Both the position numbers and the translations under genes were made by a program. From Candidatus Nomurabacteria bacterium (GTDB lineage: Bacteria; Patescibacteriota; Patescibacteriia; Magasanikbacterales; UBA922): a DNA stretch of 64,000 nt. This document shows positions 1 through 24,133 of the stretch, piece after piece. The DNA lies in contig JACKFN010000003.1 of NCBI GenBank assembly GCA_020632445.1, forward strand, positions 17,118-81,117, in the 5' to 3' direction. A model generated the notes under the pieces. The model was not told where the DNA came from. It worked only from the letters and a program-made list of their open reading frames with translations, and made no database searches. Within the stretch, counting starts at the first letter, position 1; the number at the start of each line of letters is the position of its first letter.

Positions 1-32
1 ATCGAATCCTGTCATCCCCTTGTATGTTTTAG

Positions 33-479
33 TCAGTAGTCACCCTTGATGGCGCGTCTGACTTGTCTGTCACTGTCGCGCTTTTTGAGGGCTTCACGCT
101 TGTCATGGAGCTTTTTTCCTCGACAAACAGCGATTTCTACTTTGATGTAACGCCCTTTAGTATATACTGAAAGTGGTACGATTGTCAAGCCCTTTTCTTG
201 CGATTTTCCGTAGAGTTTAGCGATTTCTTTGGTATGCAACAGCAGTTTTCGGCTGCGAGTGGGGTCATAGTCTGGAACCGTTGCGTACTTGTACTTGCGA
301 ACATGCATTCCTGTGATCATGGGGTCACCTTTGTGGAAGGTAACATAGGCGCCAGTGAGCTTTCCGCCTCCATTTCGTAGCGATTTTGCCTCAGGACCAG
401 TGAGCATCAAACCAGCCTCATAGGTAGTGAGGATTTCATAATCGTGTCTGGCCTTTTTGTTTGTCGCTAAAGTTGGCAT
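33..479 (-). CDS. smpB: SsrA-binding protein SmpB
   Basis: Full-length ~148 aa; sequence is typical of SmpB throughout (KKARHDYEIL..YEAG..L.G.E.KSLR, C-terminal basic tail). Confidence 0.9.
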   Translation of the reverse strand: MPTLATNKKARHDYEILTTYEAGLMLTGPEAKSLRNGGGKLTGAYVTFHKGDPMITGMHVRKYKYATVPDYDPTRSRKLLLHTKEIAKLYGKSQEKGLTIVPLSVYTKGRYIKVEIAVCRGKKLHDKREALKKRDSDRQVRRAIKGDY

Positions 480-541
480 AATTTTGCCTTAGAAATGCAT
501 TTAGTATATACTAAAAAGAGAAGAAAATCAAGCTATTTGCT

Positions 542-1321
542 ATGTCACCGAAACTGACTATATACATTGGTAGGGGAGTTGCTTTTTTGTCAGTTGTGTT
601 TCTCGCCCTTGCATATCGATTTCCCTATTGGTGGGTTATTTTTATGTGTGTTGCGTTATGGCTCGCTTTTTTACTTTCGTATGAGTTTTTTGTGCTACAA
701 AAAGTTGCGCCATCAAATGTGTTGTTGCATGTTTCAACGTTTGTTGCGTTTTTGTGCATGATGTATATCATGCATGGAATAAAAATTCATAAAGTTCCTG
801 TGGTGCAACTGCTTTTTTTGATTGCTGAGTTTGCTTTGATGAGCCTGCTTTTGACAGAGCGCCCGCTTGTTTCACAGTTTCATTATCTTTTTAAGCCGCT
901 TCGGCGTGTAAAAACCATGACAGCGCTTTTTGATATCTTTGCGGTGGCAACATTTATGTATGCTTTGCATGTACTTTTGCAGATTCCTTTTTGGCCTACC
1001 ATTTTAGTAAGCTCATTGATTACAGGAGTTTATTTTGTTTTCATTTGGAGAATGTACTTTGCTGTTGAAGTAAAAAGCTTTATCTTGTGGGCGTTGCTTT
1101 GCAGTTTTCTCATGCTTCAATTCGGTTTTGTTCTCAGGTTTTTGCCGTTTGGATATCTTGTATACGGCTTTTTTTATGCATGGGTCGCTTACATTATTCA
1201 GCTTATTCTTCGTTTTGAACTGAGCAAAAAGGGATTGGATATCAAAAGGCAAGTTCCATTTTTTGTAGCGAATGCTTTTTTGTTTGTCGTTACTCTTGTT
1301 TTTTATGTTGCCTGGGTGTAA
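542..1321 (+). CDS. polytopic integral membrane protein, function unknown
   Basis: 259 aa ORF dominated by hydrophobic helices; follows a TATACT-type promoter region at ~500-535. Confidence 0.5.
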   Translation: MSPKLTIYIGRGVAFLSVVFLALAYRFPYWWVIFMCVALWLAFLLSYEFFVLQKVAPSNVLLHVSTFVAFLCMMYIMHGIKIHKVPVVQLLFLIAEFALMSLLLTERPLVSQFHYLFKPLRRVKTMTALFDIFAVATFMYALHVLLQIPFWPTILVSSLITGVYFVFIWRMYFAVEVKSFILWALLCSFLMLQFGFVLRFLPFGYLVYGFFYAWVAYIIQLILRFELSKKGLDIKRQVPFFVANAFLFVVTLVFYVAWV

Positions 1322-1357
1322 AATACGCTTTAACATATATGGACTTAAGAGAGAGTT

Positions 1358-2455
1358 ATGAGTAAAAAACCTCCACATCTTCCCAATCCAACATGCAGAG
1401 TTGACACTCGCAGTAAGTTGCGTTCTGTGTTGCAAACTTTGATTTTTACCATCATTGGTTTTTTGGCTGGGCTTGCGGCAACACTGACGGCGTTTGCATG
1501 GATAATTCCGTATGATATGGATTTGCTTTCGGTTGCCAGACCGCACGCACCGGTTAAGCTAGGAGTTGATAGTGAGTTTGACCAGACACTTCAACACAGC
1601 ATCCGTCAACGTATGGTTACGGTTTATGATGCGCGCAAGAAATTGTCTGACGGTTTATATCGAAGTGATGGTTTGTTGGTGCGCGGGCTCATACTCAGTA
1701 GTGATGGATGGGTATTGCTTCCGTACCATCAGGCGCTTATTACCCAGGGAGTAAAACTCGAGATGGTGGATCATTTAGGAAAAGTTCACATACCAGATCA
1801 GGTTGTTACTGACCCACTCGGACAGTTTGTGTATGCGAAGTTTGAAGCGCAGGGGCTTGGAGTTATTGAATTTGAAAACTTTAAAGTCGCTCTCGATTCA
1901 AAAGAATTTTCGGTTTTTGATGGAAACCACTGGAGTGAAGTTTTGCTGAGTAGTTTTGATAAACCACCTTCAGCGCAGCTGGTTAGCAGCTGGCAGTCTG
2001 GGTACGGATATCGGTTACTCCCAGATGTTGCCCCCGGTGCGTTTGTTTTTTCTCAAAGCGGTAAGTTTGTTGGAGTTGTAGGAGATGATTCACACCTGGT
2101 CTTTGGTCATTACATCGCCGGCGAGCTCGAATCAGTAATTGCTCGATCGGTTGCCGATTTGAATGTGCTTCCGGTGCGCGGAATGTTTGTAAATATTCAT
2201 GATCCACAGTTTTCACGAGAATTCGAAAAAGGTTTTTATGTTTTTGAATATGAAAAAACATGGAAAGATGCTATACTGCAAGAAGGTGATGTGATTGTCG
2301 CTATAGAAGGGGAAACAATCATTCCGGAAGCTATGGACATACAAGTTCAATCACACAAGGCACTGTCACTTGAGATGGATGTTATACGAGATACCAAACT
2401 CATTCGTGTTCAGGCAAGCCTAAGTTCATTGAATGCTATTTTACAAAATTCATAA
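1358..2455 (+). CDS. membrane-anchored trypsin-like (HtrA-like) serine protease with C-terminal PDZ-like domain
   Basis: N-terminal TM helix; SSDGWVLLPYH (HtrA-like His region), SQSGKFVGV (GNSGG-like Ser motif), GDVIVAIEGETI (PDZ-like); placed just before wzz-like gene. Confidence 0.45.
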   Translation: MSKKPPHLPNPTCRVDTRSKLRSVLQTLIFTIIGFLAGLAATLTAFAWIIPYDMDLLSVARPHAPVKLGVDSEFDQTLQHSIRQRMVTVYDARKKLSDGLYRSDGLLVRGLILSSDGWVLLPYHQALITQGVKLEMVDHLGKVHIPDQVVTDPLGQFVYAKFEAQGLGVIEFENFKVALDSKEFSVFDGNHWSEVLLSSFDKPPSAQLVSSWQSGYGYRLLPDVAPGAFVFSQSGKFVGVVGDDSHLVFGHYIAGELESVIARSVADLNVLPVRGMFVNIHDPQFSREFEKGFYVFEYEKTWKDAILQEGDVIVAIEGETIIPEAMDIQVQSHKALSLEMDVIRDTKLIRVQASLSSLNAILQNS

Positions 2456-2457
2456 GT

Positions 2458-3075
2458 ATGTTTCTCAAACAAAACCCACTTCAAAAAGTTTTTCATTCAT
2501 GGAAGGTGATACTTGTCGTCAGTATTCTCATGGGAATCCTCTCGGCACTTGTTTCTTTTTTGGTCATGGAAAAGCAGTATGCATCAGACGCGCAGGTCCT
2601 TATCATTTCCAAAAGTCGATATGGTGTTGATCCATATACCTCGGTAAAGTCTTCAGAGAGAGTTGGAGAAAATCTTTTGCAGGTGATCAAGACCGATGAT
2701 TTTTATGGAAAGGTGCTTGATGCGACGACCAAGTTTGATACGAGCAAATTCGAAAATCTTTCTGATCGTCAAAGGCGAAAGGCTTGGGAAAAATCTGTTG
2801 ATGTTGCGGTTCGCTACGGTACGGGTGTCGTGGATATTCGGAGTTATCATGCGAGTCCACAGGAAGCCAACAACATGGCTCAGGCCATTATGGAAACCTT
2901 GGTGAGTAAAGGGTGGGAGTATGTTGGAGGAGATGTCACTCTCAAAATTATCAACAAGCCAGTGGCAACCAGGTTTGCTGCCAAACCAAATATGGTCGTC
3001 AATGGTGCTATTGGGTTTGTGGTTGGAGCTTTTTTGATGGTATTTTCGCTTTTGTATAGACAAAAACATACCTAG
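2458..3075 (+). CDS. Wzz-like polysaccharide chain-length determinant family protein
   Basis: 205 aa; N- and C-terminal TM helices flanking a soluble domain, the classic Wzz/PCP topology; start overlaps previous gene stop. Confidence 0.45.
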   Translation: MFLKQNPLQKVFHSWKVILVVSILMGILSALVSFLVMEKQYASDAQVLIISKSRYGVDPYTSVKSSERVGENLLQVIKTDDFYGKVLDATTKFDTSKFENLSDRQRRKAWEKSVDVAVRYGTGVVDIRSYHASPQEANNMAQAIMETLVSKGWEYVGGDVTLKIINKPVATRFAAKPNMVVNGAIGFVVGAFLMVFSLLYRQKHT

Positions 3076-3095
3076 AATCGAGTAGAAAAAAAAGA

Positions 3096-3135
3096 CAAAA
3101 AATGCCTGACGAAAAGGGCATTTTTTTGTTTTGTT
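3096..3135 (+). terminator. Rho-independent terminator after wzz-like gene
   Basis: aaatgcc-tgacgaaaag-ggcattt hairpin followed by tttttttgttttgtttt. Confidence 0.5.
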
Positions 3136-3163
3136 TTACAGTAATACTTATTCACAAACTCTC

Positions 3164-3192
3164 TTGACAAAACCTTCAAAATATGCTATAGT
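3164..3192 (+). promoter_or_regulatory. sigma70 promoter with extended -10 (TTGACA-17-TGcTATAGT)
   Basis: TTGACA at 3164-3169, 17-nt spacer, TG at 3184-85, TATAGT at 3187-3192; lies in the AT-rich spacer upstream of the GC-rich gene at 3426. Confidence 0.5.
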
Positions 3193-3425
3193 CACATGTC
3201 AATCCTTAGGGTGGGCGATTTGTCTTTGCCCGCAGGAATGATGGTTCTTTACAGATGATCAGAATTTTTTCCTGTAGCTTCTGTCTTTGAGAAGGTTTTT
3301 GGCTAATTTATGCAAAAAAGTCTTTTGTAAGACAGAAGTTACGGGGCCACGCACCCCTTTGTTTTGACAGTTCTGTAACGCCGGGTGTGTGGACCGGCCG
3401 ACGTATGCGCGAGAGGAGGTAACTC

Positions 3426-5219
3426 ATGCGCGCGATGTTGCTGGCCCTGATGGGCCTGATGTTCCTGGTCCCCGCTGCGGCGTGGGGCCAGGACGAGGAC
3501 GAGCCGGCGGCGGGGGTTCCGACCTTCACCGACGGTGACGGCGACGGGATCAAGGACGACGAGGACAACTGCCCGACGGTGCCCAACCCCGACCAGAACG
3601 CCGACGTCTGCGCGGACGCCGACGGCGACGGGGTGGTGGACATCTCCGACCCCTGCCCGTCCCAGTACGCGGACACGGCGGACGGGTGTCCGGCGCCGGT
3701 GCCGACGCCCCCGCCGACCAGCCGACCCCCCGACTCCTGGAAGGAGTTCAAGGTCAACTGGGAGGCGAGGAAGGTTCCGGACAGCGAGTGTCAACCGGGC
3801 GACTGCGACGGCGATGGGATCCCGGACGAGCTCGACGCCATGTACAACATGGCGGAGGACATGGACGGGTTCCAGGACGATGACGGCATGCCGGATCTGG
3901 ACAACGACCAGGATGGCATTCCGGACACCGAGGACGCGGACCCCAACCAGGCCGAGGACTACGATGGGGTCGAGGACAACGACGGGAAGCCGGAAGGTGG
4001 ACCGGACAACGACTTCGACGGAGACGGCATCGCCGACCCCGAGGATCAGTGTCCCTCCGTCGCGCCGGTGCCGGGCAAGGACACCAACAACGACGGGTGC
4101 CCCGACCGGTACACGTTCTCGCTCGAGTCCTGCGCGGACCCGACCAAGCGGAGGGTGTTCCAGTGCCTGAACGCCGACGTGTCCGGAAAGTACAGAGACG
4201 GGCGACCGGAATGGGACACGCAGTGTGCCAAGCCGGCCGTGGAGTTCGCCAAGAATGCGGGCAACATGGAGGCCGTGAGCTTCTCGGTCGTCTCGTACGA
4301 GGACGTGGTGAAGCTCAACCGGAAGAACAGGGGCTACAAGGACCTCTCGAAGAAGTACCGCTGCGACGACATGAAGGGGCTCGAGCGTGACAAGTGCGTC
4401 ACCGAGGGGCTCCTGCAGGAGCGCGCGAAGTACATCTACGAGATGGTCAAGCCCCTCCTGCCCGACACGTTCCCCGCGGAGCGTCTCGGTGTCGGTGGTG
4501 CTGCGCCCGACGCGCCCGAAGGGGAGCGTGGTGTCGGCATCGTGGTGAAGATCGGGTGCGGATTTCTCGAAGAGGAGCCGCTCCGGCAGTTCCGTAGCCG
4601 ATCCGGGATCCAGCCGCCAGCGCAGCGTCAGCGGCAGGTGGTCACCTCGAACCCCGAGGTCCACTGGCACATCCGGCTGGGAACTGCACTCCACCATGAC
4701 AGCATCGGGAGTCAGCCCGACGCCACCATCTTCGGTCTTCCCTACGTGAGCTTCGGCTTCCGCGGGCAGGGTCTGATGGTCGACCTCGGTGGTGGTCCCG
4801 GCATCGTGGGTTCCCAGGACAACGGCGAGTACGACGCCAGCATCACCGGGTGCTGGAGCGTGAACGCCCGCCTGGTGGACACCCACGGCAAGGTCCAGGG
4901 CATCTGGGGCGACGGCTTCGGCTGGATCCTGCTGGGCGTGGCCGGATGTCACTCGGCCTACTCGACCGCCTTCGACAATGCCCTCAAGTGGCACTCCCAT
5001 CGCGTCGGGCTGAACCTCGGCGCCATCCTCTGGGAGTCGGTCGACAGCCCGGTCGAAGACGGCTGGGAGTGGGTCGCTGACGTCAAGCTGCTGGGGGGGT
5101 GGACCTTCGACCACCGTAAGTACCTCAAGCAGGACGACGGAACCTACGTCCCCAACATGGCCGAGAGCTTCGGCACGTTCACGCCGGTGATCACCACCTC
5201 CTTCGGCTACCGCTGGTAG
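3426..5219 (+). CDS. secreted thrombospondin type-3 (TSP3) repeat calcium-binding protein with putative beta-barrel C-terminal region
   Basis: Signal peptide MRAMLLALMGLMFLVPAAAWGQ; repeated DxDxDGxxDxxDNCPxxxNPDQxD motifs (TSP3); C-terminus ...FGYRW (aromatic terminal residue typical of outer-membrane barrels); strongly GC-rich. Confidence 0.75.
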   Translation: MRAMLLALMGLMFLVPAAAWGQDEDEPAAGVPTFTDGDGDGIKDDEDNCPTVPNPDQNADVCADADGDGVVDISDPCPSQYADTADGCPAPVPTPPPTSRPPDSWKEFKVNWEARKVPDSECQPGDCDGDGIPDELDAMYNMAEDMDGFQDDDGMPDLDNDQDGIPDTEDADPNQAEDYDGVEDNDGKPEGGPDNDFDGDGIADPEDQCPSVAPVPGKDTNNDGCPDRYTFSLESCADPTKRRVFQCLNADVSGKYRDGRPEWDTQCAKPAVEFAKNAGNMEAVSFSVVSYEDVVKLNRKNRGYKDLSKKYRCDDMKGLERDKCVTEGLLQERAKYIYEMVKPLLPDTFPAERLGVGGAAPDAPEGERGVGIVVKIGCGFLEEEPLRQFRSRSGIQPPAQRQRQVVTSNPEVHWHIRLGTALHHDSIGSQPDATIFGLPYVSFGFRGQGLMVDLGGGPGIVGSQDNGEYDASITGCWSVNARLVDTHGKVQGIWGDGFGWILLGVAGCHSAYSTAFDNALKWHSHRVGLNLGAILWESVDSPVEDGWEWVADVKLLGGWTFDHRKYLKQDDGTYVPNMAESFGTFTPVITTSFGYRW

Positions 5220-5236
5220 TCAACCCTACCTTATAC

Positions 5237-5263
5237 CTACCCAAGGGTCGATGTTCCCGCCAC
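5237..5263 (+). terminator. GC-rich perfect hairpin after TSP3 gene (terminator-like, no T-run)
   Basis: gggtcgatg-ttcccgcca-catcgaccc, 9-bp perfect stem. Confidence 0.35.
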
Positions 5264-5316
5264 ATCGACCCAACTCTCCATGTGTGCATAAGTTTTGTGC
5301 CTATATGAAGAGGGTA

Positions 5317-5345
5317 TTGACAAAAGTGTAAAATTGTGCTATACT
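5317..5345 (+). promoter_or_regulatory. sigma70 promoter with extended -10 (TTGACA-17-TGcTATACT)
   Basis: TTGACA 5317-5322, 17-nt spacer, TG 5337-38, TATACT 5340-5345; near-identical in layout to the promoter at 3164 and to the -10 of the cassette module. Confidence 0.5.
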
Positions 5346-5827
5346 TATTTGTTGATTTGAAGATAGAAAAGTATCTAAAATAAGGCATAATTATAGAAAA
5401 TGTAGTGTAAAGTAGATATTTTCTGTGAAACAGAGCCTCAAGACGGGCTGTGTTGCGCAGAAAACTGCGTTTGGACATTACAATTGAGGACTACTATTAA
5501 CGACGCAGGCGAGAGAAATAGGAAAGCGGAGCTTTCATATTTCCGAGCCGAGGAGTTAACAAATATTTTTTGGTCCCTTTTTGCTTCTTGTGGGATAGAA
5601 CCCAGGCTCAGTTGAGCTTGAGTCCTATCCCACACCCCTCCGTCCCGCAAGCAAGCGGGTCGCTGGGTAAGTCCTTTGGGCAAGCCTGGCGAAGCGTTAG
5701 CGGAGTCGGGATGGAGTGGAATGGGACCGCGCCCACCGCGGTAAAGATTTTTCCTGCGGTGTGCTACCGCGTCTTTTTGACCCGATCGGGGTGGGCCCGG
5801 TCAGCGCTGACTCCTGAGGAGGACATC

Positions 5828-8248
<2,421 letters not shown>

Positions 8249-8536
8249 TCCTCACCCCGCGCCAAAGCTTCGGCTGAGGCGCGGGTCGTCGGAACCTCGC
8301 GTTCTAACCTAAAAAATCCCACCTTATTCCCTTGAGCGCATGACCGTCCATCATGCGCTCGGGAACCCAAATCAAAACATTTATCAGAGCTGACTTACTT
8401 CAAGTCATCTGTGACAAATGTTTCAAAGACATTTGAAAATTGGTGAAGTCGTGCGATCAGGAAATATATAGCATGTATTCCTTGATCGCCCGGCACATAG
8501 CCGAAACCACAACGGTTCGACATGGAGGAGAATCCC

Positions 8537-9139
8537 ATGAACCGCATCGCCCCCCTGTTCATCATCGTGATTTCGTCCACCCTCGCCGCCTGCGACCCCG
8601 AGGTCCTGGCCCAGTGGCGCCGGGCGCTCGAGAGCGTCGCGGACTACTGCCGGCAGAACCCCGGCGATGCCGAGTGCGACGGGTTCGAGGACCCCAACCC
8701 CGAGCCTCAGCCCGAGGGCAACCTCGGCGGCGCCGGCTTCCGGTGCGCCCAGCCGACTTGCGAGTTCGCGGGCATGGTCCGCGTCGGGTGGATTCGTGGA
8801 GAGAACCAGATCATCGAGGGTAGCTTCGCGGTCATCGACCCGAACACCAACCTCGCAGATGAGCTGGTCTTCGCCCCCACTCCCGAGCGCGCGCCGACCT
8901 TCTCCGGCATCCTCGACGAGTCGACCGACGGCATGTGGTTCCGACCCGAGGGTGACTGGTGGTGGCAGACCTCGGTCGAGGAGCGCGAGCAGTGGTGCAG
9001 CCAATTCACACTGGCATGGTACCCCGAGCGACTCGCGGGCCTTCCGGAGTGGTACTCGCTGCGTGCGCAGAACCTCACCGGGCTCGGCTTTTCCGGTTGG
9101 GACTGCAGCGCCGGTCGCGACGGTCCCCCCACCAACTAA
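8537..9139 (+). CDS. lipoprotein sharing the C-terminal unknown domain of the preceding gene
   Basis: Start at second ATG preceded by GGAGGAG; MNRIAPLFIIVISSTLAAC lipobox; LGGAGFRC...VRVGWIRGENQ...SFAVIDP...GMWFRPE..WW...QWC.QF aligns with residues ~690-860 of the 5828-8248 product. Confidence 0.65.
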   Translation: MNRIAPLFIIVISSTLAACDPEVLAQWRRALESVADYCRQNPGDAECDGFEDPNPEPQPEGNLGGAGFRCAQPTCEFAGMVRVGWIRGENQIIEGSFAVIDPNTNLADELVFAPTPERAPTFSGILDESTDGMWFRPEGDWWWQTSVEEREQWCSQFTLAWYPERLAGLPEWYSLRAQNLTGLGFSGWDCSAGRDGPPTN

Positions 9140-9196
9140 CCCCCCCCTGTACGCCTAGGGCAAAACCCACGAGGCGCCCCCACCGCGCCTCAACCT

Positions 9197-9229
9197 CATA
9201 TGTGCTTATAAGTTTTATAGGCACATATG
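9197..9229. repeat. perfect 9-bp inverted repeat (catatgtgc/gcacatatg) around ATAAGTTTTAT core
   Basis: Read directly; a degenerate copy (tgtgcataagttttgtgcctatatgaa) lies at 5283-5310 after the first GC-rich gene; resembles the GTTCATAAGTTCA tail of the cassette module. Confidence 0.5.
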
Positions 9230-9230
9230 A

Positions 9231-9270
9231 AAAACCCCATTGCATATTCGCAACGGGGTTTTTTGTTTTT
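9231..9270. terminator. bidirectional Rho-independent terminator
   Basis: aaaaccccattgc-atattc-gcaacgggg-ttttttgttttt (9-bp stem, one mismatch, A-run and T-run on either side). Confidence 0.55.
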
Positions 9271-9275
9271 ATACA

Positions 9276-9692
9276 CTAGATTATTTCCAATTTTCTCTCT
9301 ATTCTCTTGAGCCTCCAATCCACTTTGTGATTGTTTATTTCGTATTCATCTCGGTGCACTGCATGATCTTTGAGAAAGTTGACTATTTCGAGCATGTCTT
9401 TGAGCCGGTTATCTACTTGGTCAAAGCGTTGATCCATGCCATCGAGGCGCCCATCTATACCGTCAAAACGTTGGTCCATGCCATCGAGGCGCTGATCCAT
9501 GCCATCGAATCGTTGATCCATGCCGTCGAGGCGTTGATCTATGCCATTGAACCTTTGATCTATTCCATCAAAACGTTGGTTCACCTCGATTTTGAACTGA
9601 CTTAGGTTACTTGAAAGGCCTGTGACCACTTCAAGTATCTGAGTTATTTGTCCCTCCGTTGTATTATGCATACACAAATAATGTTTATTCAC
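9276..9692 (-). CDS. small protein with eight tandem heptapeptide repeats (R[FL]DG[IM]DQ)
   Basis: 138 aa; RFDGIDQ RFNGIDQ RLDGMDQ RFDGMDQ RLDGMDQ RFDGIDG RLDGMDQ RFDQVDN in tandem. Confidence 0.55.
   Translation of the reverse strand: MNKHYLCMHNTTEGQITQILEVVTGLSSNLSQFKIEVNQRFDGIDQRFNGIDQRLDGMDQRFDGMDQRLDGMDQRFDGIDGRLDGMDQRFDQVDNRLKDMLEIVNFLKDHAVHRDEYEINNHKVDWRLKRIERKLEII
9417..9580. repeat. 21-bp tandem repeat (~8 units, unit ttgatccatgccatcgaggcg) inside coding sequence
   Basis: Direct reading; encodes the heptapeptide repeats of the minus-strand gene. Confidence 0.8.
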
Positions 9693-15178: not shown

Positions 15179-15184
15179 AGGATG

Positions 15185-15220
15185 TCTTGTTAATATACCC
15201 ATATGGGTATATTAACAAGA
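15185..15220. promoter_or_regulatory. perfect 36-bp palindrome (tcttgttaatatacccat|atgggtatattaacaaga), CsoR-type operator overlapping -10
   Basis: ATACCC-N4-GGGTAT core matches CsoR operator architecture; minus-strand TTGCAT-17-TAATAT promoter overlaps it. Confidence 0.6.
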
Positions 15221-15245
15221 CATGGAGGATGATGCAATTGTGGAT

Positions 15246-18776: not shown

Positions 18777-19241
18777 CTATTCAAAGTATTCACGTAGTGC
18801 CTGTGCGTGGAATTTTCTCTCTTCAGGTGTGGAGCGTTTGGCTTTCCATAATTCTGTTTCAAAGTTGTCATCTTCAAACCGAGGAAAAACATGCATATGG
18901 TAGTGGAACGCGTGTTGGCCGCCAGCAGGCTCATTATGCTGCGTTATCGTGACGCCATCAACATTCCGTATCTCTTTGAGTGCGATAGCTATTTTTTTGG
19001 ACAAATCCATTATCCTGTGACCAACTCCTTGTGGAAGGTTGTATAGATTTTCGTGGTGCTCTAATGGAACAATAAGGGGATGCGCTTCGCTGCCAAGTAC
19101 TGATTTTGAGCTAATAAATCCCATTACTAGGTCGTCTCGATAAAAGATGTCATCTTGGACGATCCAAGTATCTTCATTTTCGATTCCTTGAATAGCAATA
19201 CAGATGGGGCAGTTATAGTCGCTTGGAGCAGCGTTGTACAT
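18777..19241 (-). CDS. HIT (histidine triad) family nucleotide hydrolase/transferase
   Basis: C-terminal AFHYHMHVFPR = HxHxHxx histidine triad. Confidence 0.8.
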   Translation of the reverse strand: MYNAAPSDYNCPICIAIQGIENEDTWIVQDDIFYRDDLVMGFISSKSVLGSEAHPLIVPLEHHENLYNLPQGVGHRIMDLSKKIAIALKEIRNVDGVTITQHNEPAGGQHAFHYHMHVFPRFEDDNFETELWKAKRSTPEERKFHAQALREYFE

Positions 19242-19310
19242 AAGAGTAGAGTTGTTAGGTTACTTTTATCTGAGTATAGCAAAATAGCTTTCCAGTTAAA
19301 ACCTCGTTTG

Positions 19311-19460
19311 CGGGTACAAACAAAGGAAAAATAAAAACCGCATATTACAGCGATTTTTTTGTTTGAAAAAGGTGGAGCCGAGCGAAGGAGGATGTAGAAC
19401 TGAGCATAGGCGATTTAGTCACCTATTGCTCTGTATTCCAAGTTCATAAGTTCACTTTTT
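19311..19460. repeat. cassette module copy 1 (terminator + promoter intergenic repeat)
   Basis: aaaaaccgcatattacagcgattttttt ... ggagccgagcgaaggaggatgtagaactg ... aagttcataagttcac; supplies promoter to HIT gene. Confidence 0.75.
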
Positions 19461-19539
19461 TGTAGCAGTAATTCAGTGAAATAAAAATTCTTCTTTGTTC
19501 GTGGTTTACTGCCATGGCTTTCAATTAAATACATTGACC

Positions 19540-19568
19540 TTGACAATTTACCTGAAATAAGGTATAAA
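19540..19568 (+). promoter_or_regulatory. sigma70 promoter TTGACA-17-TATAAA for 19705 gene
   Basis: TTGACA 19540-45, 17-nt spacer, TATAAA 19563-68. Confidence 0.45.
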
Positions 19569-19704
19569 AGTGGCTTAGCAATAAGAGCGATTAGAGAATA
19601 GTATTAAAAGTCGATTTGTAGTACTCTTATAAAGAGAATGAATATCATTTTCCTTAATAAGACAGTGTTACATACTTAATTTTGACTCGTAGACAATAAA
19701 CAAT

Positions 19705-20352
19705 ATGGCAGGTTATACTAAATTTGGCAGAGGTCGCTCAACTGGTTCTGGTGGAGGAAGAAGAAATTCTGGTGAAAGAAGAAGTTTTGGGAGTAGAAGA
19801 GATTCAGGAGGAAGACGAGATTTTGGGGAGAGAAGTAATTTTGATAAGCACAAGTTTTCGGCCACTTGTGGTGACTGTGGAAATCGTTGCGAGGTGCCGT
19901 TTAAGCCAACAGGAAAATTTCCTGTGTATTGTTCGGACTGCTTTAAAGGACAATCAGGTGGAAAAGAAAAGTCTTCATTTTCATCATCAAGAAACTTTGG
20001 AACAGATGGTGGTTATTCAAAACGTGATGGAGGGCAAAAAAGATTTGAGAAAAAATTTGAGGCTCCAAAGTCAAGCGGTATATCACAAAAGCAGTTTGAT
20101 AGCCTACATGATAAGCTTGATAAAATTTTAGAGCAAGTGAGAAATTTGGAGAAACAAATTCACGAAGAAAAACAGGTTATGCCTGACGAAGAATCTTCAT
20201 CAAAGAAGACGGTAGAGAAAAAAATCAAGGAAGAAAAGCCAAAGAAAGCAGCAAAAAAGAAAGTCGCGACAAAAAAAACAGTGGCAAAAAAGTCCGCTGC
20301 CAAGAAAGTGACAAAGAAAAAAGCTGTCGCCCATAAGACAAAAAAGAAGTAA
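19705..20352 (+). CDS. RGG-rich / zinc-ribbon / Lys-rich (histone H1-like tail) putative nucleic-acid-binding protein
   Basis: N-terminal RGRSTGSGGGRR..GGRRDFGER, CGDCGNRC...CSDC zinc ribbon, C-terminal KKAAKKKVATKKTVAKKSAAKK. Confidence 0.55.
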   Translation: MAGYTKFGRGRSTGSGGGRRNSGERRSFGSRRDSGGRRDFGERSNFDKHKFSATCGDCGNRCEVPFKPTGKFPVYCSDCFKGQSGGKEKSSFSSSRNFGTDGGYSKRDGGQKRFEKKFEAPKSSGISQKQFDSLHDKLDKILEQVRNLEKQIHEEKQVMPDEESSSKKTVEKKIKEEKPKKAAKKKVATKKTVAKKSAAKKVTKKKAVAHKTKKK

Positions 20353-20466
20353 GTGATAAAAAGTGAAGCGGAAAAACCACCGATAATCGGTGGTTTTTTG
20401 ATATTGAGCCGAGTAACGGAGTATGTGAGAACAGGTAAGCTACCATAGCCCTTAAGATTTTCTCTG

Positions 20467-20979
20467 CTAGGTGCTCTTGTGAATCTTTATGTACTTTGCT
20501 TCCTCTACTTTTTTCTCAAGACCTTCTTCGTGGGTGTATTTGAACTCAGATCCATCCTTGGACGTAAATGTAAAGTCTGCACCTCGGTAGTCTCTCGAGT
20601 CTGCTTCATAGGATTTTACGATAGAGCAAAAAATAGCGGTCCTCTCACATATTTTTACCTCTACGACCAAGAAGAGGCCTGTTTCTTCGAAATGGTAGGT
20701 GTCATTTCCGTCTGTGTATTTTTCTGTTGTAGTTGCCATATCGAAGAGCAGAACAATAAACAAACTGTAAACCAAGAGTAACAGTGCTGGGATGAGCCAC
20801 AATAGACGGATGCCTCTTTTTTTGTAAGAGAATAGGGCGTAGCTTAAAAAAATGACAATAGGCGTAGTCCATGACAAAAAAGACGCAACTGGTGGTATGA
20901 ATAGATATGAAAAGGACTTTCCTGTGTAGGTAAGAATGAAAAAGAAGAGGACGATCTCAATGATTGGTGTAGATTTCAT
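20467..20979 (-). CDS. membrane protein, hypothetical
   Basis: 170 aa, two to three N-terminal TM helices then soluble acidic domain. Confidence 0.45.
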   Translation of the reverse strand: MKSTPIIEIVLFFFILTYTGKSFSYLFIPPVASFLSWTTPIVIFLSYALFSYKKRGIRLLWLIPALLLLVYSLFIVLLFDMATTTEKYTDGNDTYHFEETGLFLVVEVKICERTAIFCSIVKSYEADSRDYRGADFTFTSKDGSEFKYTHEEGLEKKVEEAKYIKIHKST

Positions 20980-21039
20980 AGGTGTTTTAGGTATACTGTA
21001 TACTTTTGTATATGGTTTGTCTATACGTTGTAAACTGGA

Positions 21040-21175
21040 CTATTGGTGCAATAAAAAACAAAAACCGCTTATTACAGCGATTTTTTCATTTGAAAAACGG
21101 GGAGCCGAGTGGAGAAGGATGTTAGAACTGGGAATGGGGGATTGGGGAGGTTATTGCCACACCTAACGAGTTCAT
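21040..21175. repeat. cassette module copy 2
   Basis: caaaaaccgcttattacagcgattttttcatttgaaaaacggggagccgagtggagaaggatgttagaactggg...ttattgccacacctaacgagttcatgaagttca. Confidence 0.8.
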
Positions 21176-21294
21176 GAAGTTCATACGCTCATCCCAGCCA
21201 TGCTCAGTTGAAAATGAGTTTTCAATAGAGCATGAAGGGGTGATGTGACATGTCAGCCTTGGCGGGGTGGGCCGACATGCTTCTTCGTGATGGG

Positions 21295-21873
21295 TCAGTG
21301 GGTGAGTAGGAGTGGGGACTCACGGATCTGGATGGGGAGCACCTCATGGATGATGCCGTAATGCACTGCCTCTCGCGCATTCAGCGTGGCCTCTTGGCGC
21401 ATGAGGTCCAGGAAGACCGCGGGGCGTACTCCGGTACGCCTTGCTATGAACTGAAGAAACCAGCTTTGCGCCACCCGCATTTGGAATAGCCACTCTTCCA
21501 GGTTTTCTCTGTCCTCTGCTTCGATGCGTTCTTGCTCATCGATGACCGTTTCTATGTCGCAGATGGTGATCTCGTCGAGCGGATCACCAATCATGGCTCG
21601 TACTTCGTGGAAGTAGAACGTGGAGTCACCGAAAGCGTACCGCTTGTGTCCCAAAAGGGTTAGGAGGACAGCGGCGGAGCTGACGTCCTGTGAGAGTGTG
21701 ATGATACCCTGGCGTTCGATCGCAGGACCGAGGGATGAGAAGAAGTCGAATCGACCTCCAGGGGAGTTGACGTAGATCCCGTTGGGAGGGTTGACGGAGA
21801 GCAGAGCCCTGAGTACGGTGAACACACCTTCTGCCGTGATCTCGTCGAAAAAAGGAAAAAGTCGCAGGTGCAT
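21295..21873 (-). CDS. ClpP/S14-like peptidase family protein (compositionally GC-rich cassette gene)
   Basis: VNSPGG (ClpP INSPGG), DVSSAAVLLTLLGHKRYA (Ser/His region); visibly higher GC than neighbours. Confidence 0.55.
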   Translation of the reverse strand: MHLRLFPFFDEITAEGVFTVLRALLSVNPPNGIYVNSPGGRFDFFSSLGPAIERQGIITLSQDVSSAAVLLTLLGHKRYAFGDSTFYFHEVRAMIGDPLDEITICDIETVIDEQERIEAEDRENLEEWLFQMRVAQSWFLQFIARRTGVRPAVFLDLMRQEATLNAREAVHYGIIHEVLPIQIRESPLLLTH

Positions 21874-21989
21874 CTATGACTCGCAGTGCCGGTGAATTGT
21901 CAACCTCAAATTGAGGTTTGTCAGATACAATCTGAACATTTATATATAGCATGTTCTGGCTGAAATGTCAAACGGAAAAAAGTTTAAGC

Positions 21990-22092
21990 TTCTTCGATTA
22001 ATGGCAAAGCAAAACCAAAAAAACCGCTTATTACAGCGATTTTTTGTTGTGGAAAATATGGAGCCGAGTAACGGAGGATGTTAGAACTGGAA
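21990..22092. repeat. cassette module copy 3
   Basis: aaaaaaccgcttattacagcgattttttgttgtggaaaatatggagccgagtaacggaggatgttagaactgg. Confidence 0.8.
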
Positions 22093-22096
22093 AAGA

Positions 22097-22927
22097 TTAT
22101 TCAGGCCTTTTTTCCCCAAGTGCAAGAGTCATGTGTTCATCAGACGCATAGGTACATAGAACACGGCCAGCTAATGCAACACCATTTTCAACAATTTTAT
22201 CCTCAATGTCACGAGTAAGCTGTATGCTGCCAGATGGGCCTTGTGATGCGAATAGGACTGCGGTTCCTATTTGGTTTGGAAGTTCATAGACTGAGTCAGG
22301 TTTTTCGTGCATCATTTCCTCCTGATAATACGGTTTATCAGCAAGTTTTATTGTAATAGGCTCAGGACCATCACCAAAGTCAAATTGTGCCTGTATGACT
22401 CCATCGTCAGTAACTTCTATTGTATCACCAACGAGGGGATTAAGTTTGCGAAAAAAGTTATCTAAGACGGATTCATCTGAAAAGATGGTGTCAACGAGTT
22501 CAATTTTTCGTGCTCCTAGTGCTAATACATACTCAATATCATCTCCAGATCCAAGGTAAACGGTTGGAAAATCCTTGAGTATACCCGCAGGGATGAGCTC
22601 TTTTCTTAGAATTTCAGAAACGATTCCCTGTTTTTCTCGGATTTTAGCTTGACGAGGGTTCGTTGTAGTATCAATATTTTCAAATGCTGCTGTGCGACTC
22701 GGGCTATGGAGCAGGGTTTCTTTTTCGGCAGCACTTAAGGGTTCCCAATCGATATTAAGTCCGAGGGCTTCTAGAGCCTCTTTTTCGATTTTTTGCAGTA
22801 TTTCATCATTTTCTGTTTCTATGGCAACACCAGGCAAAACCCGAACAGGTGTTCCATCATCAAATATTGAGTCATCATCTACACAAAGATGTGGTTGATT
22901 TTCTGGGCTGTATTTTTTTCTTGCCAT
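22097..22927 (-). CDS. hypothetical protein
   Basis: Start taken at MARKKYSPENQ (ORF track extends further upstream into the module); acidic soluble protein. Confidence 0.5.
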   Translation of the reverse strand: MARKKYSPENQPHLCVDDDSIFDDGTPVRVLPGVAIETENDEILQKIEKEALEALGLNIDWEPLSAAEKETLLHSPSRTAAFENIDTTTNPRQAKIREKQGIVSEILRKELIPAGILKDFPTVYLGSGDDIEYVLALGARKIELVDTIFSDESVLDNFFRKLNPLVGDTIEVTDDGVIQAQFDFGDGPEPITIKLADKPYYQEEMMHEKPDSVYELPNQIGTAVLFASQGPSGSIQLTRDIEDKIVENGVALAGRVLCTYASDEHMTLALGEKRPE

Positions 22928-22959
22928 AGAAATGTCTTTGGTTTTGTTTTTATAAAGTA

Positions 22960-23090
22960 TAGCAAAATAGTAACTCAGTTCAAACCTCGGTTCCCAGTAC
23001 AACAATGCAAAAAACAAAAACCGCTTAATACAGCGATTTTTTATTGCAGAAAATATTGAGCCGAGTAACGGAGGATGTTAGAACTGGCAA
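22960..23090. repeat. cassette module copy 4
   Basis: cagttcaaacctcggttcccagtacaacaatgcaaaaaacaaaaaccgcttaatacagcgattttttattgcagaaaatattgagccgagtaacggaggatgttagaactgg. Confidence 0.85.
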
Positions 23091-23480
23091 TTACTTTTTA
23101 CAAAGATAATATCCTTTACACTTGATACTTGTGCAACTGCAGACTTTACTGGAGCCATCTATTTCAGTTTCAGAATAGTCGCATGTGATTTCATCCCCTT
23201 GGTTGATTTTCTGAAGGGAAATCAAGTACAAACTTCCGTTTTCGAATTTCAACGAGGTATTTGGATTGCAAGAATGATTTACCCAATTCAGAATACTTGG
23301 ATCGTCTACCCATACAATATCTTGAACGTATGCACGCTGTGGTAATGCATGCTTATAGATTTGGTTTAGAGGAACACAATAGAATTTTTTATGTCTTTTA
23401 ATGTTTATACCAGCAAAAACACCTTTGCCATGAATTTTGCTCTTTGATAAATATAATTCTGTGCTTATTGCGTCTGCCAT
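23091..23480 (-). CDS. SET-domain protein (putative lysine methyltransferase)
   Basis: NHSCNPN and GDEITCDY SET signature motifs plus post-SET Cys cluster CSCTSIKCKG. Confidence 0.8.
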   Translation of the reverse strand: MADAISTELYLSKSKIHGKGVFAGINIKRHKKFYCVPLNQIYKHALPQRAYVQDIVWVDDPSILNWVNHSCNPNTSLKFENGSLYLISLQKINQGDEITCDYSETEIDGSSKVCSCTSIKCKGYYLCKK

Positions 23481-24133
23481 AAACGTAAAATTGCTTGTGC
23501 CAACAACTCTAGTGGATCAATTATTACATATGGACAATCTTTAAGCATAAGGCTGAGTTCAGTACACCCAGTCAAAAGGATGTCTTCTTTGTCTACGTAT
23601 TTTTCAATAATATCCCTTACCTTTTTAGATTGTTGCTGAGGTGTCGTTCCTATGACGTACTTTTTAATACAATCCGAAATAGCCTCTCTGTCTTCGGAAG
23701 ATGGAACAATACAATTAGCTTCAGGATAACTGTATAGACTATTGTCATAGCTTGTTTGGGTAGATAAGATTAAAATCCTTTTTTCTATATCTAGAATCTT
23801 CTTTTTTACCTCTTGTCGTAGATCTAGAATGTTAATGGATGTGGTACTTTGCAACTCATCAAAAAAAACATGTGCAGTATTGCATGCAATGGCTATAAAA
23901 TCTACCCCAGCTCTTTCAAGGAGAGCAATTCCTTCTTTATACGGCCAAAGAGTTTCTTTGGTGATTTTTCCTGTGATTAGATCAGGAGCAGGGATGCTAT
24001 TTATTACAATGTGCGGATAATCGGCATTGTTGCGGATAAGTTGTCTTTCTCTACACATCTTGATAAGATGACCGTATAGCCAGGCTGATGACTCTGGACC
24101 GATACCTCCTAAAATACCAATAGTTTTTTTCAT
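23465..24133 (-). CDS. aspartate/glutamate racemase family protein
   Basis: GILGGIGPESS, IACNTAHVF, LLTGCTELSL: the two Cys motifs of Asp/Glu racemases; overlaps SET gene by 16 nt (same cassette). Confidence 0.8.
   Translation of the reverse strand: MKKTIGILGGIGPESSAWLYGHLIKMCRERQLIRNNADYPHIVINSIPAPDLITGKITKETLWPYKEGIALLERAGVDFIAIACNTAHVFFDELQSTTSINILDLRQEVKKKILDIEKRILILSTQTSYDNSLYSYPEANCIVPSSEDREAISDCIKKYVIGTTPQQQSKKVRDIIEKYVDKEDILLTGCTELSLMLKDCPYVIIDPLELLAQAILRLWQTQ

Follow-up and report, generated by a model that had tools for sequence, protein, structure and literature searches.

How does a run of strongly GC-rich genes for secreted proteins come to lie in an AT-rich CPR genome, interleaved with DNA that looks like the host's own? 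The question is raised by an islet at positions 3340-9197 (about 5.9 kb) of the window, that is, the whole 64-kb stretch of DNA that was analysed. The islet is a genuine case of very recent, unameliorated horizontal acquisition across phyla, with an unusual mosaic layout. The account that best explains it as a whole, namely a recent islet from a single donor, with host-type promoters, surface display of its products and preferably an origin en bloc, is in our judgement probably correct.

A foreign islet in a surface polysaccharide locus

The host is assigned to the CPR, g1 and g3 being 100% identical to NCBI proteins of 'Candidatus Nomurabacteria' encoded on a 147,920-bp contig and the host BipA 75-80% identical to CPR MAGs. 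The islet is set in a cell-surface polysaccharide locus (Wzz ... O-antigen ligase, glycosyltransferase, GHL15), with the following genes and borders:

2458-3075: Wzz-like host gene (Pfam Wzz match)
3097-3126, plus strand: intrinsic terminator of the Wzz-like gene (terminator scan), the last clearly host feature left of the islet
3426-5219, plus strand: g1, 597 aa, with signal peptide, TSP3 repeats and an orphan C-terminal part (NCBI MCB9798505.1)
5828-8248, plus strand: g2, a lipoprotein of 806 aa in the ORF (NCBI MCB9798506.1 covers the last 417 aa only)
8537-9139, plus strand: g3, a lipoprotein of 200 aa (NCBI MCB9798507.1, locus tag H6758_02175)
9230-9263, either strand: bidirectional host terminator, common to the minus-strand coiled-coil gene 9276-9692, forming the right host border

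The first-pass annotation of this DNA had described three GC-rich open reading frames in an AT-rich chromosome, and at these coordinates the description holds: the three plus-strand genes have 67-71% GC versus 41% in the host. Specifically, the GC-rich blocks 3340-5279, 5570-8302 and 8491-9197 reach 66.0%, 69.9% and 67.6% GC (z = 7-8 against background windows of 600 nt, mean 40.7%, sd 3.6, maximum 55.7). GC3 is 0.90 in g1, 0.92 in g2 and 0.88 in g3, versus 0.36-0.46 in host genes; RSCU is strongly correlated among the three genes (r = 0.86-0.93) and anticorrelated with that of the host (r about -0.55). In GC z, GC3 and RSCU alike, the islet displays the atypical composition by which genomic islands are recognised. 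These observations support a foreign origin of the DNA, from a high-GC donor, and the common codon signature makes it clear that g1-g3 derive from one donor.

The encoded proteins and their probable source

The description of g1 as a signal-peptide TSP3 protein ending in FGYRW is borne out. About five calcium-binding TSP3 repeats occupy aa 30-215, with five DxDxDG motifs, and the whole-protein TSP_3 (PF02412) score is 29.6 bits, the gathering cut-off being 25 bits. The C-terminal 370 aa, up to the final FGYRW, are orphan. OmpA_C (PF00691) has no match in g1; relaxing the limit to E <= 10 for aa 225-385 brings none either, that region being reached solely by the weak extension of one BLAST HSP, and aa 385-597 find no match in Pfam or the PDB, with the barrel domains PF13505 and PF13557 among the targets. 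A barrel is suggested solely by the FGYRW end and an alternating pattern, the AF2 model being unusable (pLDDT 33). An outer membrane is thought to be absent from CPR cells; because its end resembles that of an outer-membrane barrel, g1 may be non-functional in this host.

The mark of a lipoprotein was taken to be a lipobox [LVI][ASTVI][GAS]C at the end of the signal peptide. In g2 the signal sequence, read from the translation, is followed by the lipobox VSGC; in g3 the N-terminus is MNRIAPLFIIVISSTLAA before the C of the lipobox LAAC. The protein g2 is confirmed as a lipoprotein with EGF-like and TSP3 modules, and g3 as a small lipoprotein. The modules of g2 comprise about 12 EGF-like cysteine modules, TSP3 motifs (DxDxDG about three times; TSP_3 score 38.8 bits), three 57-aa CxxPPxxxC..FGCxDGxC modules, one CGNG..CDDGN repeat and a C-terminal 140-aa domain common to g3; a lamin-tail domain is absent. 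The claim that g2 is full of CGNG..CDDGN repeats has to be withdrawn, as the motif is present once, at aa 158-180. DUF4215 (PF13948; TIGR02232) scores 22 bits versus a 27-bit cut-off, in a single stretch at aa 156-185, and the NCBIfam scan lists no cysteine-rich-repeat model at E <= 0.01. Having no tandem CGNGxxExGExCDDGN units, g2 falls outside the Myxococcus cysteine-rich repeat family.

The domain shared by g3 and the C-terminus of g2 (45% identity, E = 5e-31) identifies the two as paralogues. Since they have diverged, they were probably adjacent already in the donor. By sequence search their domain family appears almost orphan: among 1.84 billion representatives there is one further member, a fragment, whose contig is uniformly 62-69% GC and where it lies beside a CNGxDDDCDG lipoprotein.

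As for the source, the best partial matches are OmpA/TSP3 proteins for g1 (33-58% identity across the TSP3 part) and lamin-tail (LTD)/Cys-rich proteins for g2, each aligned along only some of the query with 29-58% identity, in Myxococcales, 'Deltaproteobacteria', Bradymonadia and Krumholzibacteria MAGs. No close donor homologue (>60% identity, full length) was found, and among about 15 billion proteins g1-g3 occur in one assembly only. A domain vocabulary of Myxococcota type had been proposed, and the partial best matches agree with it; the Cys-rich repeat, in turn, is not exclusive to that group, as a genome of Kerfeldbacteria (CPR) carries DUF4215 genes of native composition, with the same GC as their flanks. 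The donor, a high-GC organism using Shine-Dalgarno sites, was probably diderm and Myxococcota-like.

If expressed, g1 would be exported by Sec, while Cys20 of g2 (806-aa ORF numbering) and Cys19 of g3 would carry a lipid anchor. The calcium-binding TSP3 and disulfide-rich modules would then be displayed on the cell surface, where the most plausible role of g1-g3 would be adhesion to a partner cell or to matrix.

Promoters and AT-rich segments

The GC-rich blocks are preceded and separated by AT-rich DNA with the following elements:

3164-3192, plus strand: promoter TTGACA-17-TGcTATAGT, sigma-70-type with extended -10, pointing at g1
5317-5345, plus strand: promoter TTGACA-17-TGcTATACT, extended -10, upstream of g2
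5280-5569, plus strand: AT-rich host-type segment, dense in palindromes, separating g1 from g2, about 36% GC, fold z = -6.1
8303-8490, plus strand: AT-rich segment between g2 and g3, about 41% GC, fold z = -6.7
5279-5307, plus strand: AT-rich imperfect palindrome P', homologous to P
9196-9230, plus strand: near-perfect AT-rich palindrome P, 16-nt arms, 94% complementary, z = -7.2

The two nearly identical promoters reported at first sight are indeed present, each with 11 of 12 consensus positions plus the TG extension. The one at 3164 shares 24 of its 29 positions, spacer included, with a promoter of a CPR relative (L007). The last base of the -10 hexamer lies 233 nt from the ATG of g1 and 482 nt from that of g2. 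No convincing promoter precedes g3, the sole promoter-like site of segment 8303-8490 being a weak GTGACA-18-GAAAAT at 8411-8440. Each gene had been thought to be wired to a host-style promoter; promoters do exist ahead of g1 and g2, while their connection to the genes is our reading, since they are distant, behind strongly folded leaders, and g3 has none that convinces. Transcription would start from the host-type promoters at 3164 and 5317, in the AT-rich DNA ahead of g1 and g2, and g3 would be transcribed by read-through from g2 or from the weak site at 8411.

Likewise, the AT-rich spacers exist, with 36% GC over 5276-5569 and 41% over 8301-8490, and look host-like, although they are shorter than was claimed, because each GC-rich block has a GC-rich leader and 3' flank of its own. 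Their sequence supports the view that they are probably host-like DNA. Segment 8303-8490 folds into three strong hairpins (about 8330-8364, 8375-8423 and 8450-8492). A search of the 64-kb window, L082 and ten CPR relatives found no second copy of either segment, and neither terminal inverted repeats nor target duplications were recognised. Some 55 nt of homologous sequence follow the hairpins of g1 and g3 (5257-5309 and 9177-9231, about 75% identical), in register with the stop codons. The ATAAGTTTT palindromes, which the first-pass annotation had likened to parts of the cassette module at 19-27 kb, do resemble each other, but not that module. A likeness of the islet to that module is unsupported: the repeat profile of the module (nhmmer, 8 copies) has no match at E <= 10 within the 3-9.3 kb region, and GTTCTAAC stands singly at 8301 instead of 8291, its occurrences outside the module fitting chance.

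Leaders, hairpins and translation signals

Around the genes, the GC-rich blocks include donor-type leaders and hairpins, and one long hairpin runs up to the border of the first block:

3271-3345, plus strand: long imperfect hairpin with 30-nt arms, ending at the AT-to-GC transition, leader fold z = -6.2
3340-3425, plus strand: GC-rich (60%) donor-type g1 leader, with hairpin and T-run at 3346-3368 and Shine-Dalgarno AGGAGGT
5570-5827, plus strand: GC-rich (60%) non-coding donor-type g2 leader, Shine-Dalgarno AGGAGG, no coding GC3 periodicity
8491-8536, plus strand: GC-rich g3 leader, Shine-Dalgarno GGAGGAG
5245-5271, plus strand: GC-rich 10-bp hairpin 26 nt past the g1 stop, -17 kcal/mol, z = -6.2
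8256-8285, plus strand: GC-rich hairpin 8 nt past the g2 stop, -25.4 kcal/mol, with the GC-rich block ending at about 8302
9171-9191, plus strand: GC-rich 7-bp hairpin 32 nt past the g3 stop, with the GC-rich DNA ending at about 9197

The g2 leader holds a hairpin with 22-nt arms (5589-5634) and terminator-like hairpins (5726-5771). The hairpin after g1 is terminator-like without a T-run, and its block ends 8 nt further on; in general, the blocks end 8-18 nt beyond the hairpin. Their 3' flanks are nearly constant (61, 55 and 59 nt), with leaders of 86, 258 and 46 nt. All six block boundaries are clean, with no donor gene fragment at any of them. Such clean ends are not predicted by random DNA integration.

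In 40 of 43 host genes the Shine-Dalgarno match is at most 4 nt, versus strong sites ahead of g1-g3. Translation of the islet genes would proceed via the donor GGAGG sites; the host, in turn, may make no use of Shine-Dalgarno pairing at all. Moreover, the folded leaders (z = -5.4 to -6.7) and the terminator-like hairpins at 3346-3368 and 5726-5771 could block transcription or Shine-Dalgarno-independent initiation.

Origin of the islet

A GC-rich contaminant mis-joined into a CPR contig during assembly or binning has to be considered, given that the source is a MAG, that the proteins are known from that single assembly, that Logan contigs end soon after entering GC-rich DNA and that the four inner junctions (5280, 5570, 8303, 8491) are supported by the MAG contig alone. 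Against it, the composition switches six times in 6 kb, within a 148-kb contig, and the AT-rich spacers hold correctly oriented promoters typical of the lineage. In addition, a different assembler rebuilt both outer junctions from two runs, at 99.97-100% identity: one independent Logan short-read contig (L085, SRR12358676) equals window positions 1-3566 with one mismatch and crosses the left junction 226 nt into GC-rich DNA, the other (L086, SRR12358675) equals 12621-9144 at 100% and crosses the right junction by 52 nt. Where these contigs end there is a TSP3 repeat or a poly-C run rather than a junction. As both host/islet joins are spanned in this way, a chimeric join is unlikely, and the artefact as a whole extremely so. 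The genes might instead be native, their GC driven by amino-acid composition or by repeat-driven biased gene conversion, as Asp, Gly, Cys and Pro abound in the proteins and g2 is internally repetitive. Recoded with host codon choice, however, g1-g3 would have only 48-51% GC; GC3 is just as high (0.88-0.92) in the non-repetitive g3 and in the C-terminal part of g1, Shine-Dalgarno usage is foreign to the host and the CPR-native DUF4215 genes are not GC-enriched. This reading has next to no probability left; GC3 and RSCU effectively refute it.

How the foreign DNA arrived is a separate matter. The preferred reading is one transfer of g1-g2-g3 en bloc, followed by two short, palindrome-rich host-type insertions that would have landed just 3' of donor terminator hairpins, one of them bringing a promoter. 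Two extra insertions are needed here, in the short time before any amelioration. The first-pass annotation suggested that each gene had been captured or domesticated individually; individual capture is unproven in view of the common codon signature and the g2/g3 paralogy (45% identity); transfer en bloc with later host-type insertion is at least as likely as separate captures. Serial capture from the same donor would involve three acquisitions in the same orientation, by integron-like or other site-specific cassette insertion beside native promoters, each trimmed to gene, leader and terminator hairpin. It would fit blocks that are each one whole gene with a leader and a near-constant 3' flank ending after the hairpin, free of donor gene fragments at all six boundaries and separated by AT-rich host-type DNA, as well as the ~55-nt homology after the g1 and g3 hairpins; the genome also has the 19-27 kb array, in which unrelated genes, one of them foreign-looking (GC3 0.67), are split by promoter/terminator repeats. 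Yet the islet borders show neither integrase nor tRNA, the neighbours being the Wzz and coiled-coil genes: the only tRNA reported is at 36885, and the only recombinase in the 64-kb window (Pfam annotation, all larger ORFs) is a large serine recombinase at 35227-36954, 26 kb away. Direct repeats do not flank the islet, its only repeat pair (5257-5309, 9177-9231) bracketing g2-g3; attC-like R''/R' boxes and a repeat after g2 are missing, and the module profile has no match. At about 75% identity, P and P' are not fresh recombination products, and co-transfer explains adjacent diverged paralogues more simply. We therefore hold serial capture to be rather unlikely. Transcript-based capture, with the blocks as cDNA of donor (possibly host-cell) mRNAs integrated into native DNA, would account for their likeness to monocistronic units (Shine-Dalgarno leader, coding sequence, terminator hairpin and 3' ends 8-18 nt beyond it) and for GC-rich leaders in which no donor promoter-like site was detected. 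Its mechanism is without bacterial precedent, however, neither a reverse transcriptase nor a retroelement occurs in the 64-kb window, and the junctions bear no A-tracts or other scars of retro-insertion; the leader hairpins at 3346-3368 and 5726-5771 rather suggest donor intergenic DNA with the terminators of upstream genes. Such capture is very unlikely. A broader idea, which we rate as distinctly improbable, is an unrecognised CPR gene-capture process in which transcription-unit-sized pieces from an attached high-GC partner, taken up via cDNA or hairpin-directed recombination, would be stacked head-to-tail behind native promoters.

Significance

The hosts of nearly all environmental CPR lineages are, to our knowledge, still to be found, and an unameliorated surface-protein cluster from a high-GC diderm is a testable lead to a physical partner. 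If the capture process were true, the symbiont's host could in addition be named from the signature of the donor. The islet also represents a snapshot of the earliest domestication of foreign genes in a streamlined genome: it keeps donor codons, leaders and ribosome-binding sites, differing from the promoter and translation-initiation style of the host, with short AT-rich leaders and no Shine-Dalgarno, and native-type promoter DNA is already placed in it. Should the clean boundaries reflect mechanism and not chance plus selection, they would suggest that genes can be acquired by a new route.

Comparison with known systems

Neisseria Correia elements and pneumococcal BOX/RUP are promoter-bearing palindromic intergenic repeats or MITEs. 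The AT-rich inserts are similarly short (190-290 nt), palindrome-dense and intergenic, one with an outward consensus promoter; unlike with these elements, a second copy was found neither in the 64 kb nor in relatives, terminal inverted repeats and target duplications were not recognised, and the genome's own 19-27 kb repeat family does not match them.

With integron cassette arrays the islet shares tandem, same-orientation, single-gene foreign units of unrelated or loosely related function, each closed by a hairpin-forming sequence. It differs in that, by Pfam on all larger window ORFs, no IntI tyrosine recombinase with an attI site stands beside it. Both attC R''/R' core sites and a common Pc promoter are missing. 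RYYYAAC/GTTRRRY boxes are absent from the junction sequences and, although a hairpin follows each gene, the 3' regions of just two genes out of three are alike. Furthermore, two units have promoters of their own, the units measure 0.7-2.7 kb, and the recombinase 26 kb off is a serine, not a tyrosine, enzyme.

The TSP3-OmpA, Cys-rich and lamin-tail proteins of Myxococcota, 'Deltaproteobacteria' and Krumholzibacteria resemble g1 in its TSP3 repeats and g2 in its 57-aa CxxPPxxxC...FGCxDGxC and EGF-like modules and its one DUF4215-type repeat. In contrast to them, neither OmpA_C nor an N-terminal barrel is detected in g1, whose final 370 aa are orphan, while g2 is without a lamin-tail domain and its C-terminal domain is known from one other fragment.

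Finally, a study of Patescibacteria (mSystems 2025, PMC12455944) found that most transfers had taken place within this group and were not of recent date, their divergence being 3.9-34.5%. Like the islands and individually transferred genes described there, the islet is compositionally atypical foreign DNA placed in a variable locus for the cell envelope of a streamlined CPR genome. Unlike them, it is only 5.9 kb long with no adjoining integrase or tRNA, and it is cross-phylum, completely unameliorated (GC3 about 0.9) and interleaved with native-type promoter DNA.

Composition and foreign origin of the islet genes

The GC content of the window is about 41%, and 600-nt windows outside the region of the islet (3340-9197) have a mean of 0.407 (sd 0.036) and a maximum of 0.557. 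From this background emerge three GC-rich blocks (z = 7-8 across the three), each carrying one plus-strand gene. The first-pass annotation had placed three open reading frames here, all of which were found at its coordinates, and had described them as GC-rich in an AT-rich chromosome, a description that sliding-window GC analysis bears out.

Features of the islet and its immediate surroundings
2458-3075: Wzz-like gene, left neighbour of the islet
3164-3192: promoter 1, TTGACA-17-TGcTATAGT, 11/12 sigma-70 consensus positions plus TG extension
3340-5279: GC-rich block 1, 66.0% GC, with gene g1 (3426-5219, plus strand)
5245-5271: dominant GC-rich 3'-flank hairpin of block 1
5279-5307: AT-rich palindrome P'
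5317-5345: promoter 2, TTGACA-17-TGcTATACT, 11/12 sigma-70 consensus positions plus TG extension
5570-8302: GC-rich block 2, 69.9% GC, with gene g2 (5828-8248, plus strand)
8256-8285: dominant GC-rich 3'-flank hairpin of block 2
8491-9197: GC-rich block 3, 67.6% GC, with gene g3 (8537-9139, plus strand)
9171-9191: dominant GC-rich 3'-flank hairpin of block 3
9196-9230: AT-rich palindrome P
Right of the islet: coiled-coil gene, O-antigen-ligase gene, GT4 glycosyltransferase and GHL15 gene

The three genes display the classical coding periodicity of high-GC genomes, with GC1/GC2/GC3 values of 0.66/0.45/0.90 (g1), 0.71/0.49/0.92 (g2) and 0.64/0.52/0.88 (g3); in host genes (n=13), GC3 is 0.36-0.46. 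Recoding of the three proteins with host codon preferences gives just 48-51% GC, and therefore amino-acid composition fails to explain the GC excess. Moreover, relative synonymous codon usage is strongly correlated among g1, g2 and g3 (r = 0.86-0.93; favoured codons CTC, CGC, GGC, GCC, GTC and ACC) and anticorrelated with that of the host (r about -0.55). As a control, the genes for DUF4215 Cys-rich proteins in a Kerfeldbacteria (CPR) genome have a GC content equal to that of their own flanks. Judged by composition and codon usage, the islet genes are foreign, come from a single donor and are essentially unameliorated.

Integrity of the assembly

In the Logan per-run assemblies, the host flank proteins are present and g1-g3 are absent. 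In particular, a 4,795-bp contig (L085, run SRR12358676) matches window positions 1-3566 with one mismatch, running through SmpB, Wzz, the promoter, a hairpin and the AT-to-GC switch into 141 nt of g1, while a 3,478-bp contig (L086, run SRR12358675) matches 12621-9144 at 100%, running through the glycosyltransferase, the ligase, the coiled-coil gene, a terminator and palindrome P into 52 nt of the GC-rich 3' flank of g3. Both outer junctions are thus rebuilt by a different assembler from two different runs, which makes the chimeric assembly considered at the first pass very unlikely. One contig ends inside a TSP3 repeat and the other inside a poly-C run, both away from the junctions, positions that would speak against an island-free haplotype co-existing at appreciable frequency. 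Exact-protein look-ups for contigs covering the inner junctions (5280, 5570, 8303 and 8491), using g1, three starts of g2, two starts of g3 and ten spurious spacer ORFs, found none on record. A mis-join does not look like this contig, which changes composition six times within 6 kb and has promoters typical of the lineage in its AT-rich parts. A further contig (L087) proved to be the same DNA as the window.

The encoded proteins

In the g1 product (597 aa), a signal peptide is combined with about five calcium-binding TSP3 repeats, which score 29.6 bits in Pfam (cut-off 25); TSP3 motifs also occur in g2 (38.8 bits), as had been proposed for both proteins. Database relatives of g1, mostly OmpA-family proteins of Myxococcales, 'Deltaproteobacteria' and Krumholzibacteria MAGs, align to the TSP3 part only (17-60% of the query), and for residues 225-597 no relative, Pfam family (E <= 10) or PDB sequence match was detected. 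The C-terminal end (...TTSFGYRW) and an alternating residue pattern suggest an outer-membrane beta-barrel, a reading that stays a suggestion because the AlphaFold model of this part is unusable (pLDDT 33). Such an outer-membrane-like C-terminus would be without an obvious place in a cell lacking an outer membrane, and may be inert.

The g2 product is an 806-aa lipoprotein (lipobox VSG|C) with about 12 EGF-like Cys modules, three 57-aa CxxPPxxxC...FGCxDGxC modules, the TSP3 motifs and a C-terminal 140-aa domain. It had been thought to be full of Myxococcus-type Cys-rich repeats; the CGNG..CDDGN..DGDGC repeat occurs exactly once, and DUF4215 reaches 22 bits, below the 27-bit cut-off. Its best matches, partial and at 29-47% identity, carry a lamin-tail domain or are rich in Cys; those with a named source come from Myxococcales, Deltaproteobacteria and Bradymonadia MAGs. 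By the closeness of its locus tags (H6699_*), one Myxococcales MAG may be linked to this submission, which is a lead only. The NCBI version of g2 (MCB9798506.1) begins at Met390 and comprises 417 aa, the last part of the ORF only. The upstream 389 codons (5828-6994), with an in-frame GC3 of 0.95, are clearly coding; an SD and a lipoprotein signal stand at their start.

The g3 product (200 aa, lipobox LAA|C; AlphaFold pLDDT 37, unusable) and the C-terminal domain of g2 are paralogues that share 45% identity (E = 5e-31). Searches of Pfam (E <= 10) and of PDB sequences returned no match for the orphan parts. When a profile of the shared domain was run against 1.84 billion representative proteins, it recovered g3, the g2 fragment and, beyond these, a single 76-aa fragment (E = 2.5e-8), so the family is almost orphan and its sole other known carrier is a high-GC organism. 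The fragment lies at the end of a 1.6-kb Logan contig (L001, SRR26425195), where it is followed by a lipoprotein with a CNGxDDDCDG 'putative metal-binding' motif; GC along the contig is mostly 62-69%, dropping to about 51-58% in the last 400 nt (3' end). This contig provides a lead to the donor lineage. As donors themselves, both L001 and the contig with the best g2 match (L084, 56% GC) were rejected from gene context.

Block architecture, spacers and expression signals

Each block consists of a GC-rich leader with an SD (86, 258 and 46 nt), one complete coding sequence and a 3' flank (61, 55 and 59 nt). There are no donor-gene fragments at the block boundaries and no coding periodicity in the 258-nt leader. 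With GC3 in the genes still at about 0.9, amelioration of donor DNA cannot account for the AT-rich spacers, which are host-type DNA. Alignment of the spacers with each other, with the window and with relatives yielded nothing beyond the P'/P pair and a single promoter match. Neither 5280-5569 nor 8303-8490 recurs in the window, in a related JGI contig or among ten CPR relatives. Specifically, the only significant similarity between spacers links 5257-5309 with 9177-9231 (score 33; maximum 25 in 200 shuffles), stretches that each begin 37 nt past a stop codon and contain P' and P, respectively. Because they share about 75% identity, P' and P are not fresh duplicates of so recent an insertion.

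The strict promoter pattern occurs at nine sites in total on both strands of the whole window. Promoter 1 is identical at 24/29 positions, spacer included, to a promoter downstream of BipA in a CPR relative (L007), and the repeat module at 19-27 kb has its own TTGAAC-17-TGCTATACT promoter; both observations support the earlier description of these promoters as host-style. Upstream of g3, no promoter-like site better than GTGACA-18-GAAAAT was found. Counted to the ATG from the final base of the -10 hexamer, the leaders measure 233 nt (g1) and 482 nt (g2); they include terminator-like hairpins (3346-3368 and 5726-5771), and all spacer segments out-fold their shuffles (z = -5.4 to -6.7, AT-rich and GC-rich parts folded separately). 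With leaders so long and strongly folded, and with such hairpins in them, it is an inference that the promoters drive g1 and g2. The predicted translation signals (SD AGGAGGT in g1, AGGAGG in g2 and GGAGGAG in g3) are not of the host style. An SD is very rare among host genes, 40 of 43 of which have a best anti-SD match of at most 4 nt. Their -10 boxes are often no more than about 25 nt from the ATG, a spacing that suggests initiation on short leaders or without a leader.

The proposed tie between the islet and the 19-27 kb module did not hold: an nhmmer profile of eight module copies has no islet match, motif statistics also speak against it, and the supposedly module-like GTTCTAAC sits at 8301 (not 8291), within chance expectation. 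The module itself is an intergenic unit of ~240 nt, present in eight copies at 19200-27100 (minus strand) between unrelated small genes (among them HIT, membrane protein, Clp-protease-like, SET, Asp/Glu racemase and transglutaminase-like), and contains TGAACT direct repeats, an invariant CAGTTCTAACATCCTCCGTTACTCGGCTC, a terminator AAAAAATCGCTGTAATAAGCGGTTTTT and the promoter. At least 3 copies occur in 11 kb (L082; 2067-2167, 3939-4149 and 5862-6013) of the related 506-kb JGI contig Ga0210057_1000012, in other gene contexts, so the unit is a dispersed promoter/terminator repeat of the lineage. The Clp-protease-like gene inside the module (21295-21873, minus strand; GC 0.56, GC3 0.67, without SD) may be a second foreign gene, older or differently sourced, behind a native promoter repeat. 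Around AAAATTAGCGACGAA, another family of small intergenic repeats has three copies, at 48115-48231, 56761-56826 and 58132-58248 (68-83% identity to the reference copies).

Host locus and genomic neighbourhood

Two of the genes are on record at 100% identity, g1 as MCB9798505.1 and g3 as MCB9798507.1 (H6758_02175), on a 147,920-bp contig of the NCBI 'Candidatus Nomurabacteria bacterium' MAG; no publications on the run and protein accessions were found. The islet lies in a cell-surface polysaccharide locus. The coiled-coil gene directly to its right (9276-9692, minus strand) is built of 21-nt (7-aa) tandem repeats, MDQRFDG/IDQRLDG. The BipA of the window shares 75-80% identity with that of CPR MAGs, and a perfect 42-nt palindrome (15182-15223, ATGTCTTGTTAATATACCCAT/ATGGGTATATTAACAAGACAT) separates the DUF4395 and BipA genes. 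Among 80 BipA loci from GTDB genomes compared in search of an empty site, the nearest ones, with 75-80% identity and the labels Magasanik-/Gracilibacteria or 'Gammaproteobacteria', are syntenic with the window at BipA alone.

Plasmid and phage collections (blastn) gave no meaningful islet match, and Rfam at E <= 1 over 3050-9300 gave chance-level matches only. Elsewhere in the window, a LOOT RNA (RF03000; 30907-31020, minus strand; 81 bits, gathering score 46.4) covers the first ~20 nt of a zinc-ribbon/trypsin-like gene (29604-30926) and reaches upstream. At 48788-53898 an HlyD-like membrane-fusion gene adjoins an AcrB-family RND transporter (786 bits), an efflux pair usually tied to diderm envelopes and found here in a CPR genome.

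The islet has no recombinase, tRNA or phage gene next to it. The window's sole recombinase, of the large serine type, is encoded at 35227-36954 beside tRNA-Thr; the 3' end of its gene (35227-36958) overlaps the opposite-strand tRNA-Thr(GGT), and this overlap may mark the border of an integrative element spanning the variable 19-35 kb region.

Route of acquisition, possible role and comparison with known systems

The single codon signature, the adjoining diverged paralogues g2 and g3, and parsimony lead us to lean slightly towards en bloc transfer over serial capture. The three genes would have arrived together, after which two short palindrome-rich host-type inserts, one of them bringing a promoter, would have entered just 3' of donor terminator hairpins. 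Serial capture of single-gene units is the slightly less favoured alternative, to which the clean and uniform boundaries lend weight, as random integration of DNA would rarely be expected to produce them where the donor or recipient genome is gene-dense. The boundaries would also suit a transcript-based capture, but the window holds neither an RT nor retro-insertion scars, and the terminator-like hairpins in the 5' leaders resemble ordinary donor intergenic DNA.

Inserted in a surface-polysaccharide locus, the islet is predicted to encode proteins exported by Sec and proteins anchored to lipid, with modules that bind calcium or are rich in disulfides. Organisms of the host's type are believed to live attached to other cells, and the most plausible role of these proteins would be adhesion or surface mimicry towards a partner.

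The islet is not an integron, because it has neither IntI nor attC, and it does not fit the classical tRNA/integrase island. Islands of horizontal transfer are documented in Patescibacteria, and those outlined in PMC12455944 are mostly intra-phylum and not recent. By comparison, this islet is small and pristine, comes from another phylum and has native promoter DNA interspersed in it.
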